Assembly (NCBI GenBank): GCA_965140415.1
Contig: OZ223209.1
Location: 1,984,001 to 2,048,000, forward strand
From: Myxococcota bacterium
GTDB taxonomy: Bacteria > Myxococcota_A > SURF-8
DNA: 64,000 nucleotides
Direction: 5' to 3'
Below, piece by piece: positions 6,235 to 12,524 of this stretch; the first letter of the stretch is position 1, and every line of letters starts with the position of its first letter. Made by a program: the position numbers and the translations under genes. The notes under the pieces were generated by a model that worked only from the letters and a program-made list of their open reading frames with translations, made no database searches and was not told the origin of the DNA.

Positions 6235-6663
6235 GAAACCTCTTGATCGGGAGCCTGGCTGTCCGATTGATTCAAAGTGTTACGACATCGCGACGCTGCC
6301 GGTCGCGTACAACTCGGACATTCGCCGGATTCTGTAGCGATGCCCCAAGATACTTAATATCATTTTATCATACTTTATAGAAAGGTTTCAACGGCAATCG
6401 TTGGCTTAAAGCGGGAAAATCTGTGGAAATCGCGAGAAATCGCTCCGCCTGGCGCAGCATCGGCAAGGCAAGCCGAAACCTGCGTGCCGATTACTGCCAT
6501 TTCGACGGTGGACGTCTGGCAGTCCGGGGGAGCAATCCCCCTGTTCCGGCCAAAAGATGACAAACAAAGTCGGTGTGGAAAAAGGTTTGTACTATTTTTC
6601 ATGACCGTGCTATTTTTACCGCACATCAACTTAGTCGAGATCCATTCATGCTGGGGAGTTCAG

Positions 6664-9600
6664 ATGCCGGAAGCGACCGTTTCGATACAGGACTTTATTT
6701 CGCGTTGGAAAACCAGTGGGGCCTCCGAACGCTCCAACTACCAGCTCTTTTTATCGGAGTTGTGCAAGATCATCGGTGTGATGGGACCGGAGCCCAGCCA
6801 GCCCGATAACGAAAAGAACACCTACGTTTTCGAGAAGGCCGTCAGTCAGCACCATGCCGACGGTTCCACCTCGCAGCGTTTCATCGATCTTTACAAGCGT
6901 GGTTGCTTTGTGCTGGAAGCCAAGCAGGGCGCGGAAAAACGCGAGCATGATGAACTTGCCCTGAAATCAAAAAAGCTTAAAACCGGCCACGGTACGCGCG
7001 GCTCGCATGGCTGGGATGTCACCATGACCGCCGCCCGGCATCAGGCGGAAGGGTACGCCAAGGCGCTGCCAGTAGAGGAAGGCTGGCCGCCGTTAATTAT
7101 GGTGGCGGATGTGGGCCACGTGATCGAGGTCTTCGCGGATTTCAGCGGCACCGGTAAGGTCTACCAGCAGTTCCCGGATGCGCAGAACTTTCGCATCTAT
7201 CTGGACGATCTCCAGAAAGATGACGTTCGCGAGCGCCTGAAACTTATCTGGAGCGATCCGCATTCATTAGACCCCGCTAAGCGTAGCGCCGCCGTTACGC
7301 GCGAAGTGGCCGACCGACTGGCGAAGCTGGCGAAAAGCCTGGAAGGCAGCGAGCACGAACCCAAAGTCGTGTCCGAATTTCTCATGCGCTGCCTCTTTAC
7401 CATGTTTGCAGAGGACGTGGGTCTTTTGCCCAAGGACGCTTTTACCCGGCTTCTAGCCGAGTTGAAGGCCGAGCCGAGAAAGTTCCAGCCCATGCTTCAA
7501 TCGATGTGGGCGGATATGGATAAAGGTGGATTCTGCGGCGTGTTGCGCGATACCGTTTTGCGTTTCAATGGCGGCCTCTTTGCCGATCGCACGGCGCTGC
7601 CTTTGACCGGAGAGCAGATCGAACTTTTGGAGCACGCCGCCAAGGCGGATTGGAAAGACGTGGAGCCGCGTATCTTCGGCACCTTGCTGGAGCGCGCCTT
7701 AGATCCTAAAGAACGCCATAAACTGGGGGCGCACTTCACGCCGCGTGCCTATGTGGAGCGGCTGATCGAGCCGACACTTCTGGAGCCCTTGCGCGAGCAG
7801 TGGGAAAACGCCAAAGCCGCCGCGCTGATGGACGCCGACAAGGGCGATTTGAAATCCGCTACCGAGCGCGTCAAGACTTTCCACCGCCTGTTGTGCGACA
7901 CGAAGGTGCTGGACCCGGCCTGCGGCTCCGGCGACTTTTTGTACGTCGCGCTGGAGCACATGAAGCGGCTGGAGGGCGAGGTGCTGACCCTGATGGAGGA
8001 TTTCGGCGTGGAGTCGCGCGGGCTGGAGTTGACCGGCCTGACCGTCGATCCGCATCAGTTCCTCGGCATCGAGATCAACCCCCGCGCTACGGCGATTGCC
8101 GAGATGGTGCTGTGGATCGGTTATCTGCAATGGCATTTTCGCACCAAGGGCAATGTGAACCCGCCCGAACCGGTTTTGCGCGATTTCAAAAATATCGAGT
8201 GCCGCGACGCGCTTTTGGTGTGGGATCGCTGCGAAATCGCCACGGATAAAGACGGCAAGCCCCTTAGCCGCTGGGATGGCGAGACGATGAAGACGCACCC
8301 GGCCACCGGCGAACTGGTGCCGGATGAGACGGCCCGCGTCCCGCAACTGCAATACCTCAATCCCCGCAAGGCCGAATGGCCCCAGGCCGATTATGTCATC
8401 GGCAATCCGCCGTTTCTGGGAAAGGGCGAATTGATACGCGAGGCATTGGGGGACGGCTATGTGGAAGCACTTTGGAAAAATTATCCAGAAATGCCCCGTT
8501 CAGCGGATTTTGTACTGTACTGGTGGAATAAAGCAGCCCATTTGCTGAGAGATGGTAAGCTCAAGCGATTTGGTTTCATCACCACCAACTCAATTCACCA
8601 GACCTTTAACCGGAAAGTCCTTGATAGGCATATGACGGCGAAAGATCCGCTATCCATTCATTTCGCCATTCCCGATCATCCCTGGGTGGATAACACAGAT
8701 GGCGCTGACGTTCGAATTGCTATCACTGTAGCACGAGCTGGGGAATATTCAGGAAACGTAGCAAATATCGAGCGAGAAGTAAAAAGCGACCAAGATACCC
8801 GGATGGTACTGCTTGCAGAAAGCAAAGGAGTAATTCACAGCAATCTGCGTATTGGCGCTGATGTAGGTTCTGCTGTCGCGTTAATGGCTAACCAAAATCT
8901 CAGTTGGAATGGCATTATGACTGCGGGTCGCGGTTTCCTTGTCACGCATGAACAAGCAGAAAAGCTAGGGTTTGGAAAATCGGAGACTCTGAGCAAACGT
9001 ATTCGCCCCTTCATGAATGGACGAGATATCAATCAAACTCCAAGAGGAATGTATGTGATCGATCTTTTTGGATTAGAAATCAAAGAAGTCCAGATGCAGT
9101 GTCCTGATTTGTATCAATGGGTCTACGAAAATGTTAAGCCGGATAGAGATGTAAAAAGGGACAAGAAATTTAGAGAACGTTGGTGGGATTTTGGACGACC
9201 AAGACCTGACTTCAGGAAAGCTACAGAAACCCTTGAAAGATTCATTGCGACGGTTGAAACTTCAAAACACCGAATGTTCGTTTTCCTTTCTTCTGAAATA
9301 TTGCCAGAGCATAAACTGGTGAATATTGCTCTTGATGATGCGTTTTTTCTAGGCGTTCTATCGAGTCGAGCGCATGTATGCTGGGCGTTAGCCTCCGGTG
9401 GTCGTTTGGGGGTTGGTAACGATCCTGTTTATGTGAAATCCAGATGTCTAGACACCTTCCCCTTCCCGGATGCCACGGACGAGCAGAAGGCCCACATCCG
9501 CGACCTGGCCGAGCGCCTGGACGCCCACCGCAAGCAGCGCCAGGCCGAACACGAAAACCTGACCATGACCGGCATGTACAACGTGCTGGAAAAGCTGCGC

Positions 9601-10113
9601 AGCGGCGAGGCGTTGACCAAGAAGGAGCAGCATATTCACGAATGGGCGGCCACAACCGTGTTGAAGGAGTTGCACGACGAGTTGGACGCCGCCGTTTTCG
9701 ACGCCTACGGCTGGCCCGCCGACCTGGACGACGAGGACATCCTGGAGCGGTTGGTGGCGCTCAACCATGAACGCGCCGACGAGGAAAAGCGGGGGGTGAT
9801 CCGCTGGCTCAGGCCCGACTACCAGAACCCGGACGGCCACAGCGCCGCCACGCAGACCGAAGCCGAACTTGCCGAACGCACCCCGGCCAAGGCCAAAGCC
9901 GCCGCCATGAAAAAACGCCCCTGGCCCAAAGCCCTGCCCGAGCAGGTGCAGGCCGTGCGCGAGGTGCTGGCCGAACTCCCGGAAGCGGCCGACGAGGCGA
10001 CCATCGCCAAAGCCTTTAAAGGCGCACGCAAGGACAAGCTTTCCGAAATCCTGGCGACATTGGAAGTTATGGGTGGGGCCAAGCGGACGGATGAGGGTTT
10101 GTGGAGTTGCTGA
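6664..10113 (+). CDS. MmeI-like type IIL restriction-modification enzyme (fused endonuclease, adenine methyltransferase and TRD)
   Basis: IDLYKRGCFVLEAK nuclease motif, LGAHFTP, LDPACGSG (motif I), GNPPF (motif IV), HxxLDxAVxxAYGW tail. Start moved to ATG 6664 after a GGGGAG RBS. Confidence 0.9.
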   Translation: MPEATVSIQDFISRWKTSGASERSNYQLFLSELCKIIGVMGPEPSQPDNEKNTYVFEKAVSQHHADGSTSQRFIDLYKRGCFVLEAKQGAEKREHDELALKSKKLKTGHGTRGSHGWDVTMTAARHQAEGYAKALPVEEGWPPLIMVADVGHVIEVFADFSGTGKVYQQFPDAQNFRIYLDDLQKDDVRERLKLIWSDPHSLDPAKRSAAVTREVADRLAKLAKSLEGSEHEPKVVSEFLMRCLFTMFAEDVGLLPKDAFTRLLAELKAEPRKFQPMLQSMWADMDKGGFCGVLRDTVLRFNGGLFADRTALPLTGEQIELLEHAAKADWKDVEPRIFGTLLERALDPKERHKLGAHFTPRAYVERLIEPTLLEPLREQWENAKAAALMDADKGDLKSATERVKTFHRLLCDTKVLDPACGSGDFLYVALEHMKRLEGEVLTLMEDFGVESRGLELTGLTVDPHQFLGIEINPRATAIAEMVLWIGYLQWHFRTKGNVNPPEPVLRDFKNIECRDALLVWDRCEIATDKDGKPLSRWDGETMKTHPATGELVPDETARVPQLQYLNPRKAEWPQADYVIGNPPFLGKGELIREALGDGYVEALWKNYPEMPRSADFVLYWWNKAAHLLRDGKLKRFGFITTNSIHQTFNRKVLDRHMTAKDPLSIHFAIPDHPWVDNTDGADVRIAITVARAGEYSGNVANIEREVKSDQDTRMVLLAESKGVIHSNLRIGADVGSAVALMANQNLSWNGIMTAGRGFLVTHEQAEKLGFGKSETLSKRIRPFMNGRDINQTPRGMYVIDLFGLEIKEVQMQCPDLYQWVYENVKPDRDVKRDKKFRERWWDFGRPRPDFRKATETLERFIATVETSKHRMFVFLSSEILPEHKLVNIALDDAFFLGVLSSRAHVCWALASGGRLGVGNDPVYVKSRCLDTFPFPDATDEQKAHIRDLAERLDAHRKQRQAEHENLTMTGMYNVLEKLRSGEALTKKEQHIHEWAATTVLKELHDELDAAVFDAYGWPADLDDEDILERLVALNHERADEEKRGVIRWLRPDYQNPDGHSAATQTEAELAERTPAKAKAAAMKKRPWPKALPEQVQAVREVLAELPEAADEATIAKAFKGARKDKLSEILATLEVMGGAKRTDEGLWSC

Positions 10114-10245
10114 AGATAGGGAAACAGCACCATAACCGAATTGCGCATATTTTTTCCCCCGCCCTGACGTCTTCGCTTTACAAAATGGTGAAACGGGGTA
10201 AGGTCGGCAGGGTGAGTTCAACCCCTTGTTTCAAAGGAAGCCGCC

Positions 10246-10434
10246 ATGCCTGAATTGACCGATACCCAGGTGCTGATTCTCTTCGTTGCCGCCTGGTTCA
10301 TCTTGCAGCGTTTCATTCTGCCCCGCCTGGGCGTGTCCACCTGAATGGCCGAATCCTGTCGCGTGCCGACGGAAAACAAATCCTCCCAAACGGAACCGCA
10401 AGCTTCCGACACAGACGAAGACGAAACGAAGTAG
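10246..10434 (+). CDS. Small single-TM protein; 32 aa if UGA 10342-10344 is a stop, 62 aa if read as selenocysteine
   Basis: AAGGAAG RBS, then MPELTDTQVLILFVAAWFILQRFILPRLGVST-UGA-MAESCRVP...ETK-UAG; hairpin right after the UGA. Confidence 0.6.
10354..10373 (+). promoter_or_regulatory. Candidate bacterial SECIS hairpin
   Basis: UCC-(bulged U)-GUCG / loop CGUGC / CGACGGA; the loop starts 17 nt after the in-frame UGA and has G at its second position. Confidence 0.5.
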
Positions 10435-10637
10435 CGCAGGGCAACTTGCTGCATTGCAAGGTTTTAGGGGGGAATCCATTTCCGGGAGGCCGTGTGTAAC
10501 TTAATGAAAACACACAGCCTTCCACGATCTAGGATCGCGTAAGACTATGGCACAAAATCAAGGAATCAGTGGCTATAAATGACGGATACCCAGTTTAGTC
10601 GTTCAGATTGTGCGTGAGCGAAAACCGTTGGGCGAGT

Positions 10638-11225
10638 TTATTTCTCTTTCCCTTTGCGTTGGGCGGCTTGCTGCTTGGCCTTTTCCGGGCCGGTGGGTTC
10701 CAGTCGCGCCAGCATGACGTGCGACTCCATGAAAAAGCCCGCCTGCCGGTAGAGATTCATGGCGTTGTCGTTTTTCTGCAACACATTCAAGCGCAGAAAG
10801 CGCGCGCCCGCCTTTTGCGAACGGCGCTTGAATTCGTTCATTAGCCGTTTGCCGATGCCCATCTGGCGGTAATCCGGGGCCACCACCAGTGAATACAAAA
10901 AGCCGATGGTCTCCGGGAAAAAGAGATCCTCGTCCACGCCGTACCAGGCCACACCCACGATGCTGCCCTCGATCACCGCTACAAGCACCTTGTGCTTTTC
11001 CTGGCGGTACCACTGCGCCAGCAGTTTGCGATGCTCGCGAATCAGTTCCGCCTCGCGCAGAGGACGCCCGGAGAGCGGGTGGATGTCCCAGTTTTCCCGG
11101 AGGTTGTCGCGATCCACCGCCCAGACCTGTCTCATTTCCTCCGGTTTGGCATAGCGAATCGAAACCCGCCCCTTACGCGAAGACGCCGCCGCTTTGGCTT
11201 TCGTGGCTGTCCCCTGCTTCTCCAC
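10638..11225 (-). CDS. GNAT family N-acetyltransferase
   Basis: LVVAPDYRQMGIGKRLM motif A, N..A..LY...GF. Start reassigned to GTG 11225 (GAGGT RBS) to avoid overlap with the upstream gene. Confidence 0.88.
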   Translation of the reverse strand: MEKQGTATKAKAAASSRKGRVSIRYAKPEEMRQVWAVDRDNLRENWDIHPLSGRPLREAELIREHRKLLAQWYRQEKHKVLVAVIEGSIVGVAWYGVDEDLFFPETIGFLYSLVVAPDYRQMGIGKRLMNEFKRRSQKAGARFLRLNVLQKNDNAMNLYRQAGFFMESHVMLARLEPTGPEKAKQQAAQRKGKEK

Positions 11226-11230
11226 GATAC

Positions 11231-11626
11231 TTACCTCTTTTTCCGTTGTTGGGATTTCTCCGGCGCCGGGTAGCGCAGTTCCTGCAATTGTTCGCGCTCC
11301 ATGCCGATCCAGAAGTCGTCCGGGTTGCCCGGTGGATGAAAGAGCCATTCCTCGACATTCTGCTTGAATTCGTTCGGCTCGGCCTTGCGCAGAAAGACGA
11401 AGGGCACGCCGTCGTCGCGTAAAAGTTCATCGCCCGGCTGTAACGCATCGGCATCGACCGGACGGCCATTCATCCAGCTTTCCGGCGGACCGGAAGGCGC
11501 GTCTTTGGCGTTCAACTCCGACATTTTACCGGAGAAAAAGCGCACGATCACGCCGAAAAACGCAAAGAATAGAATCACTTTGAGAATCTGCCACCACAGG
11601 GGATTGTCGGCTAACGTCCCTTCCAC
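11231..11626 (-). CDS. Hypothetical protein with N-terminal membrane anchor
   Basis: Hydrophobic N-terminus; fits tightly between the crotonase and GNAT genes in the same orientation. Confidence 0.6.
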   Translation of the reverse strand: MEGTLADNPLWWQILKVILFFAFFGVIVRFFSGKMSELNAKDAPSGPPESWMNGRPVDADALQPGDELLRDDGVPFVFLRKAEPNEFKQNVEEWLFHPPGNPDDFWIGMEREQLQELRYPAPEKSQQRKKR

Positions 11627-12387
11627 TCCGGTTTCCTTTTCTGTAAGAACGAGAGCACCCCCTCGCGGGCGTCTTCGGTCTGCATGTTCAGCGCGTGTTG
11701 CGCCAGTAAATACTGCATGGATTCCGCATAGCTCATCCGGTCGATGGCCTGGAAGGCTTCCCGTCCCAACCGAATGGCCGCCGGGGAGAAATCCGCAATC
11801 TTTCCAAGTAGATCATCCACCTTCGCATCCAGTTCTTCCCTGGCTACGACCGCATTGAGCATCCCCAGTTTTTCAGCCTGGGCGGCGGTTACTTGCTGGG
11901 CGGTCAATACCAGTTCCTGCGCCTTTTTGGGACCGACGTGCCGCTGCAACAGCGCCAGAATCAACATGGGAAACAGACCCACTTTCAATTCCGGGCAGCC
12001 CAGACGAACGTCCGGGCAGGCCAGCGCCAGATCACAGGCCAGCAGAATCGCCAGTCCGATTCCCAGGGCGTGACCGTTCACGCGCGCCAGAATCGGCTTT
12101 TGCAACTGGTTGATATCAATCAACAAGTCCACGATATCACGGTTTGCGTCGTAGCGGGAAATGACTCCGGCGTCGTTCTGATCGCGCCCCAGATCGCCTC
12201 CCGCACAGAATACGGTATCGCCAGCGCCTGTCAGCACGATGGCGCGCACGTCGTGATCGTGATTGGCGCGGCTCAAGTTCGCACGCAGAACATTGACGAC
12301 GGCGGACGTGATGCTGTTTCGTCGTTGTGGACGATTGATGGTGATCCAGGCGATCAATCCCCGTTTTTCGTAGAGAACCTCATCCAT
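11611..12387 (-). CDS. Enoyl-CoA hydratase/isomerase (crotonase) family protein
   Basis: ITINRPQRRNS, FCAGGDL, KPILARVNGHALG, PELKVGLFP, EGVLSFLQKRKPEWKG. Confidence 0.93.
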   Translation of the reverse strand: MDEVLYEKRGLIAWITINRPQRRNSITSAVVNVLRANLSRANHDHDVRAIVLTGAGDTVFCAGGDLGRDQNDAGVISRYDANRDIVDLLIDINQLQKPILARVNGHALGIGLAILLACDLALACPDVRLGCPELKVGLFPMLILALLQRHVGPKKAQELVLTAQQVTAAQAEKLGMLNAVVAREELDAKVDDLLGKIADFSPAAIRLGREAFQAIDRMSYAESMQYLLAQHALNMQTEDAREGVLSFLQKRKPEWKGR

Positions 12388-12524
12388 GACCCACTCTCCC
12401 GCAGCCAATCAATCAACAAAGCCTAGCAGAGCCAGGCAGTGAAGTAAAGGAAATGCGTATTGGCATGAACGCCTGAATATCGGACACGAAATGGATGTTT
12501 ATGCAAGTAGGATAGGGGGTTACC

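Follow-up and report, generated by a model that had tools for sequence, protein, structure and literature searches.

A candidate membrane-anchored selenoprotein of a large unnamed peptide family in a Myxococcota genome

The DNA analysed in this work, referred to below as the window, is a stretch of 64,000 nucleotides from a Myxococcota bacterium (GenBank assembly GCA_965140415.1, contig OZ223209.1, positions 1,984,001 to 2,048,000 of the forward strand), which corresponds to C1:1984001-2048000 of a one-contig genome of 5.98 Mb (G000). A short frame with an in-frame TGA was found at positions 10246-10434 of the window, in a 525-base gap between a 1209-codon open reading frame (ORF) that ends at 10113 and a convergent 236-codon ORF that ends at 10638. 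Codons 1-32 encoded MPELTDTQVLILFVAAWFILQRFILPRLGVST and were followed by TGA at 10342-10344, after which the frame began with MAESCRVPTENK, continued for 29 open codons (MAESCRVPTENKSSQTEPQASDTDEDETK) and ended with ETK before a TAG at 10432-10434. The initial annotation of this locus, made from the sequence letters, had claimed a ribosome-binding site, a 32-codon membrane peptide ending in LPRLGVST directly before the UGA, and a frame that stays open for 29 more codons to give a U-x4-C motif; all three could be read in the sequence, the last as far as the TAG. Judged from sequence comparison, positions 10246-10434 very probably represent one gene encoding a 62-residue membrane-anchored selenoprotein with selenocysteine (Sec, U) at residue 33, and the TGA most likely codes for Sec. 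The features of the gene, with the evidence used to assign them, are as follows.

10234..10239, + strand: Shine-Dalgarno-like AAGGAA, 6 nt upstream of the ATG at 10246 (read from the sequence)
10246..10434, + strand: full frame of the proposed 62-residue selenoprotein, with stop codon TAG at 10432-10434
10261..10326, + strand: single hydrophobic helix, residues 6-27, proposed membrane anchor (AlphaFold2 and Lys/Arg counts)
10318..10341, + strand: signature LPRLGVST directly 5' of the proposed Sec codon (29-sequence alignment)
10342..10344, + strand: in-frame TGA, proposed codon of U33 (TGA/Cys column across relatives)
10357..10359, + strand: Cys38 codon TGT, 5 residues past U33, which is also the 5' part of the hairpin (Cys at +5 in relatives)
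10354..10373, + strand: hairpin resembling a selenocysteine insertion sequence (SECIS), within the coding sequence, loop CGUGC (folding and comparison with relatives)
10374..10431, + strand: acidic, poorly conserved C-terminal tail, predicted to be disordered (no conserved columns; predicted local distance difference test (pLDDT) 54-62)

In the alignment of 29 sequences, P26, G29, T32, and the U/C column were invariant, and L25 and V30 were conserved in at least 90%. The ATG in the window lies 32 codons before the UGA, and the starts of its relatives lie 28-29 codons before it.

To find the relatives, 60 related genomes were searched in six frames with read-through of stop codons. This search gave 5 clear relatives, each with one TGA inside the match and with alignment on both sides of it, and the best expectation (E) values for relatives were 6e-15 with the single query and 2e-30 with a profile. 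The possibility that the frame is open by chance in an intergenic region and is no gene, which would be consistent with its short length and with the lack of a matching protein family model, is already contradicted by these homologues and by the 1809 database relatives described below, and its probability is negligible. With a profile built from these five and the window sequence, six in all, 45 of the 401 phylum genomes gave a match at E<=0.01; the match contained TGA in 35 genomes and no stop codon in 10, and none had TAA or TAG at the column. We translated 31 of the 45 matched loci, the 14 left out comprising 9 with TGA and 5 without. The TGA stood exactly after G-V-x-T, with conservation on both sides, in 26 of the 31 translated loci, and the other five had Cys at this position. 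Among long frames of the window's genome, TGA accounted for only 1096 of 3210 stops, so the invariance of TGA at this column is not a result of base composition. At this column the homologues carry UGA or Cys and in no case TAA or TAG, and they stay conserved beyond it, which is the support that the initial annotation had asked for.

The 26 Sec forms were of more than one type. Seventeen continued as U-M-x3-C, the type found in the window, and had the second Cys at +5 in 16 cases and at +6 in one. The other nine lacked this continuation, and seven of them were variants of U-AVPxPRRSA (the exceptions being G223 and G244). In the five Cys forms, the peptide was the N-terminus of a protein of approximately 175 residues, the rest of which was a DUF302 domain (88.6 and 87.5 bits). 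Because the codon next to the TGA is ATG both in the window and in each of the 17 relatives of the U-M type, the locus could also be read as two coupled mini-genes, a 32-codon peptide ending at the TGA and a separate 29-codon peptide starting at the adjacent ATG (TGA-ATG). However, seven of the nine other Sec forms had no ATG at this place and six of those seven were nevertheless conserved there as U-AVPxPRRSA, the same Met was internal to one protein in the Cys forms (T-C-M-S-G-A-C), and no Shine-Dalgarno site preceded that ATG beyond what belongs to the coding sequence. We regard this arrangement as highly improbable, and retain the single selenoprotein gene as the preferred interpretation.

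The window protein had no counterpart among annotated families. No NCBIfam family matched it at E<=10 (NCBIfam r20), eight Cys relatives were likewise unmatched for this module, and Pfam-A gave, for the window protein and the Cys relatives, only sub-threshold matches to hydrophobic or membrane segments. An exhaustive HMMER search of 1.84 billion representative sequences with the 29-row profile gave 1809 matches at E<=1e-3, 88 of them at E<=1e-10. The best 150 of these 1809, on which column tally, lengths, and spacing were determined, had a median length of 67 residues, and the 62-residue read-through product fits the family in this respect. At the column corresponding to residue 33, the best 150 comprised 122 entries with C, 18 with W, 4 with R, 3 with S, 2 with G, and one 29-residue entry that ended there; of the 122 Cys forms, 110 had their second Cys at +5, as in T-C-M-S-G-A-C. 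The sole name given by the sources for the database relatives was "hypothetical protein," and a protein atlas queried with a natural Cys relative returned only an unnamed cluster of "hypothetical protein" (0.85). A word-indexed protein search with the read-through product returned no candidate, which is expected when gene callers truncate the gene. From these comparisons, the window protein appears to belong, as a Sec form, to a large family of membrane peptides of 50-90 residues that has no name and in which the common form has C-x4-C.

The entries with W at the column were traced to their DNA in one case. Two loci in metagenome contigs, 98% identical to the database entry P0030, had TGA where the protein shows W, which indicates that metagenome gene callers had read the UGA under a Trp code. 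Among 80 metagenome loci of the P0030 clade, the codon was TGA in 77 and TGC in one (L125), and two were left unresolved by the motif search. We infer that other W entries (such as P0047 and P0056 among the 18), and perhaps the G entries, also represent UGA under another code, an explanation that leaves out the R and S entries. The 29-residue entry P0134 is a database protein cut at the Sec column. The expectation of the initial annotation that gene callers truncate or misread the gene was thus borne out in both ways, and the comparison exposes two database artefacts, namely entries cut at the UGA and entries in which the UGA is read as Trp. In total, more than 100 TGA forms were seen across genomes and soil and sediment metagenomes. 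A contig scan with a narrow alignment gave only two Cys forms, both in metagenome-assembled genomes of Acidobacteriota.

The genome containing the window encodes the machinery for Sec incorporation, a point that the initial annotation had proposed to check. A tRNA-Sec was found with 69.5 bits (cut-off 47) and was assigned the anticodon tca by ARAGORN, and selA (453 bits) and selB (315 bits) both scored over their curated cut-offs; these three were clustered at C1:1259252-1262658. Two selD genes likewise exceeded the curated cut-off (393 and 356 bits), one at C1:1066875-1067798 and the second copy (356 bits) at C1:2076098-2077012, approximately 28 kb past the end of the window. A frame of the formate dehydrogenase type with one in-frame TGA was found in the same genome. 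Across the phylum, selA was detected in 247 of all 401 genomes; among the 35 with a TGA-containing match, 33 had it.

Immediately downstream of the UGA, the window can form a hairpin that may be drawn in two ways: with a bulged U10357 and three additional pairs, arms 10354-10361 and 10367-10373, and the loop CGUGC at 10362-10366, or with six unbroken pairs (10356-10361 with 10367-10372), one U-G pair included. Its stability was -5.5 kcal/mol and its loop starts 17 nt past the UGA. The fdhF gene of Escherichia coli likewise has an in-frame UGA with a hairpin immediately after it in the coding sequence, and homologues with Cys; its loop is GGUC with a bulged U below. The window protein is unrelated to FdhF and the stem in the window is short, with six pairs. 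A GGUC loop was present in seven of the nine relatives grouped as the U-AVPxPRRSA type. A bulged U was possible only in the window and in G004. Of the earlier description of a stem with a bulged U and a CGUGC loop, the hairpin itself is present and can be so drawn, and across the family the bulged U is not conserved. The hairpin fits the bacterial SECIS consensus model, in which the apical loop lies 16-37 nt after the UGA as quoted in a recent review (PMC13188914), by the position of its loop at 17 nt and by a G within the first two loop bases.

For comparison with relatives, we counted a hairpin when a perfect stem of at least 5 pairs closed a loop that was 3-10 bases long, had G as its first or second base, and began 14-26 nt after the codon. 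Hairpins were found by direct enumeration; parsing of minimum-free-energy structures overlooked some of them. Such a hairpin was present in 25 of the 26 Sec forms from the phylum, all but G203, in which the stem is interrupted, in 75 of the 76 TGA forms of the metagenome set, and in none of the five Cys forms, and it reached -5 kcal/mol or lower in 22 of the 26 Sec forms. By the same rule, the background in the window's genome was 251 of 1096 TGA stops of long frames (22.9%) and 362 of 1333 in-frame Cys codons (27.2%), and a hairpin as stable as -5 kcal/mol followed 5.1% of the TGA stops and 7.2% of the Cys codons. The stem sequences varied by clade (UGUCG/CGACA, UGCCG/CGGCA, GCUCCC/GGGAGC, UGCGACCG/CGGUCGCA, CCGCGCC/GGCGCGG, GUCGA/UCGAC, and others), with the position kept.

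Covariation was counted on two ungapped, single-register MAFFT alignments, neither of which was fitted to a structure; these replaced a covariance model derived from a MAFFT alignment with mixed hairpin registers, in which registration was poor (67.4% paired). In 57 distinct metagenome sequences, 82.0% of the cells were paired, compared with 74.4% in shuffles, and the covariation score was 0.185 compared with 0.100; none of 500 shuffles reached either value. Both sides changed in six of the eight pairs, and controls in which the positions were slid gave 19-42% pairing. Nine sequences of the window's own type showed 94.4% pairing (slid controls 17-67%), and pair 18-28 was U-A in six and C-G in three of them and unpaired in none. 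The kept position and the compensatory changes support the SECIS-like reading of the hairpin, and the signal is significant only through this comparison with relatives.

The gene neighbourhoods of the relatives linked the peptide with DUF302 (PF03625): relatives of the window peptide were fused to this domain or directly followed by it. At six Sec loci of the phylum, a DUF302 gene of approximately 130 codons lay directly downstream and often overlapped the stop of the peptide gene. Of the 80 metagenome loci, 58 extend at least 600 nt downstream, and 40 share a downstream same-strand ORF, three representatives of which were DUF302 proteins in Pfam (79-87 bits). An upstream ArsR-type regulator was common to 22 of the 80 (three representatives tested), an OsmC-like protein to 11, and a beta-eliminating lyase to 9 (one representative tested for each). 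The fusions of the Cys form with DUF302 adjoined a rhodanese and an extracytoplasmic function (ECF) sigma factor fused to a zinc-finger anti-sigma domain. In P0098 (208 residues), the module was fused to thioredoxin with 105.7 bits (cut-off 96.8); its tail looks frameshifted, and this case may be one of adjacency rather than fusion. Several peptides of the U-AVPxPRRSA type (L046, L047, and L058) were seen to end in ...C-TGA or ...CS-TGA, with the start of the DUF302 gene overlapping that stop. The beta-eliminating lyase was also observed beside the peptide gene in distant clades, at L013 (G001) and at the nine metagenome loci; a possible role would be to provide a group containing sulfur or selenium, or to take one away.

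Several of the results weigh against reading positions 10246-10434 as a selenoprotein gene. The hairpin of the window, taken alone, is weak and no more than chance would give: its fold had a z-score of +0.83, and 159 of 200 shuffles folded equally well or better. The sequence that forms the hairpin also contributes to the codons of SCRVP, PRRSA, or RVESR, and the Cys forms lack these motifs and retain the second Cys; the conservation after the UGA is therefore partly at the RNA level, with the C-x4-C spacing conserved at the protein level, and amino acid conservation at these motifs is not creditable to the protein alone. The rows from related organisms are not independent, so that the counts overstate the support. 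G001 (assembled in 3 contigs) and G002 (in 180), two close relatives each approximately 94% complete, retained the TGA form, and in neither was selA found at E<=1e-3 or selB above its cut-off; their tRNA-Sec candidates scored 42.5 and 50.5 bits, respectively (cut-off 47), and both had selD. Finally, the window gene had no DUF302, regulator, or rhodanese neighbour, its next gene is convergent, and no neighbour was common to the window and the nearest relatives; the neighbours found were DHH, SNF2, Lnt, 3-hydroxyacyl-CoA dehydrogenase, beta-eliminating lyase, and class V aminotransferase proteins. The only DUF302 gene of the genome was located at C1:3490402-3490593, approximately 1.5 Mb away.

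The retention of TGA in G001 and G002, the weakness of the window hairpin, and the annotation of P0134 as a 29-residue protein ending at the column would agree with the UGA being an ordinary stop, in which case the product would be a 32-residue membrane peptide and the downstream part a relic of a Sec or Cys form, or functional as RNA only. This reading is difficult to reconcile with the full Sec machinery in the genome, with reading straight through to C-x4-C in the Cys forms, with covariation of the hairpin, and with the exclusive use of TGA in 26 of 26 Sec-form loci and 77 of 80 metagenome loci, never TAA or TAG, given the share of TGA among stops stated above. Moreover, G001 and G002 also kept an in-frame TGA in frames of the formate dehydrogenase type, one of which was a full FdhA match (1350 bits), so that the gap in selA and selB is not specific to the small gene; the two genes seem to be missing through incomplete assembly or to have been lost very recently. 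We consider an ordinary stop unlikely by a wide measure. The lack of a conserved neighbour and of an adjacent DUF302 gene would instead agree with a true gene of the Sec family that is a silent orphan here, brought in with mobile DNA beside the upstream ORF, which is restriction-modification-like, and unexpressed. No sigma-70-type promoter or terminator was found by a simple scan of 9900-10800, which covers one promoter type. On the other hand, the gene is intact in its frame, start, signature, Cys38, and hairpin, and the family has many stand-alone copies, L074 and L075 among them. A silent orphan is therefore very unlikely, and a gene that yields the 62-residue selenoprotein remains the preferred interpretation.

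The predicted shape of the protein was simple. AlphaFold2, run with the 29-row alignment, gave a helix at residues 6-27 (pLDDT 82-94 per 10-residue block) and disorder in the remainder. Over 151 family members, the mean number of Lys and Arg residues was 0.74 on the N-terminal side of the helix and 1.74 on the C-terminal side, and the C-terminal side was the richer in basic residues in 100 of the 151 proteins and the poorer in 15. Under the positive-inside rule, this excess suggests that the N-terminus lies outside and the C-terminus inside, which would place U-x4-C at the cytoplasmic face of the membrane. A lipoprotein signal peptide, which calls for a basic N-region and a lipobox in which a small residue precedes the Cys, was also considered, since Cys/Sec comes after a hydrophobic helix; it was ruled out by the acidic N-terminus (MPELTD) and by the Thr before U.

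On this basis, a mechanism can be proposed. SelB, aided by the hairpin at 10354-10373, would insert Sec at the UGA at 10342-10344. The U/C-x4-C pair at the cytoplasmic membrane face may then cycle between selenol/thiol and selenenylsulfide; alternatively, it may bind a thiophile, for instance a selenium compound, a persulfide, or some soft metal(loid). The pair would be recycled by thioredoxin, and the peptide would work with a DUF302 protein, which in this genome is encoded elsewhere, so as to help the cell respond to soft metal(loid)s or to reactive species of sulfur or selenium. Among relatives, the ArsR-type or ECF/anti-sigma, rhodanese, and OsmC-like neighbours suggest thiol or selenol chemistry at the inner membrane face. 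The partner DUF302 proteins contained two invariant cysteines, in ILGACNPP and LPCN, which are candidates for a thiol relay with the peptide; in an AlphaFold2 model of a fused Cys form, the linker carrying the Cys had pLDDT <50 and no contact was shown. Provided that the gene is real, redox cycling or thiophile binding by the membrane pair, recycling by thioredoxin, and cooperation with DUF302 together form a tentative model, to which we give slightly less than even weight. The initial annotation had proposed a 62-residue membrane-anchored redox or metal-binding selenopeptide; the selenopeptide gene stood up to comparison, and the redox or metal-binding part is approached indirectly, through the C/U-x4-C motif and the neighbours of the relatives.

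It is also conceivable, although we think it unlikely, that the UGA acts as a selenium-dependent switch, giving the 62-residue selenopeptide in the presence of selenium and, when selenium or SelB is lacking, a 32-residue anchor with a functional or regulatory role. The full form would then constitute, with DUF302, an undescribed membrane system, controlled by ArsR or an ECF/anti-sigma pair, that senses or detoxifies soft metal(loid)s or reactive species of sulfur or selenium. Such a system would provide the first biochemical context for DUF302. Even apart from a switch, fusion or adjacency to DUF302 and the two invariant cysteines of the partner offer a testable starting point for working out what this widespread domain of unknown function does. 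DUF302 has been noted in sox gene clusters (PMC5037610). Joint mention of "selenoprotein" and "DUF302" in the literature was found in an unrelated context only.

Among known selenoproteins, the eukaryotic SELENOK and SELENOS are small and cross the membrane once; their Sec lies near the C-terminus, in a disordered cytosolic tail, and is decoded by a SECIS element in the 3' untranslated region. In the window protein, by contrast, the proposed Sec is six residues past the helix and the hairpin is in frame, and the Pfam scan gave no sequence relation between them. MerT is a membrane protein in which a Cys/Sec pair near the surface is thought to bind soft metal. The window protein shares with it a Cys/Sec pair near the membrane, but MerT has several helices and the window protein has no Pfam match. 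MerT-type mercury transport (PF02411) is listed among the selenoprotein families in the May 2026 review in Applied and Environmental Microbiology (PMC13188914), in which Table 1 contains 119 prokaryotic selenoprotein families or subfamilies. Nearly all 119 carry Pfam, NCBIfam, TIGRFAM, cd, or PTHR identifiers, and most are presumed redox proteins. As a point in common, the proposed Sec of the window protein lies within a short motif that contains Cys. The nearest tabulated motifs by spacing were those of TsoA (LULAxC), which is U-x3-C, and TsoB (UxxxxU), which is U-x4-U, compared with U-x4-C in the window. By the rows of Table 1, none of the 119 tabulated families was described as a small single-helix membrane protein, the cd and PTHR families having been compared by description only. 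Those of the OS_HP and GOS_A-C families of older surveys that the same table includes were considered and set aside, as their NCBIfam or Pfam models do not match the window protein. The family of the window protein was likewise not described in the portions of Haft and Gwadz 2022, deep-Sep, or BSepDB that were available. The locus would thus probably represent an ordinary decoding mechanism in an undescribed protein family, and would add a selenoprotein family missed by current inventories and annotation models.

Some observations concern the genes that flank the 525-base gap. The upstream restriction-modification-like ORF of 1209 codons (window 6484-10113, + strand) has a GNPPF motif, which we take to be typical of N6-adenine methyltransferases fused to restriction enzymes. 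Downstream, the ORFs at 10638-11348 (- strand, 236 codons) and 11611-12408 (- strand, 265 codons) resembled an acetyltransferase and an enoyl-CoA hydratase, respectively, as judged by eye only.
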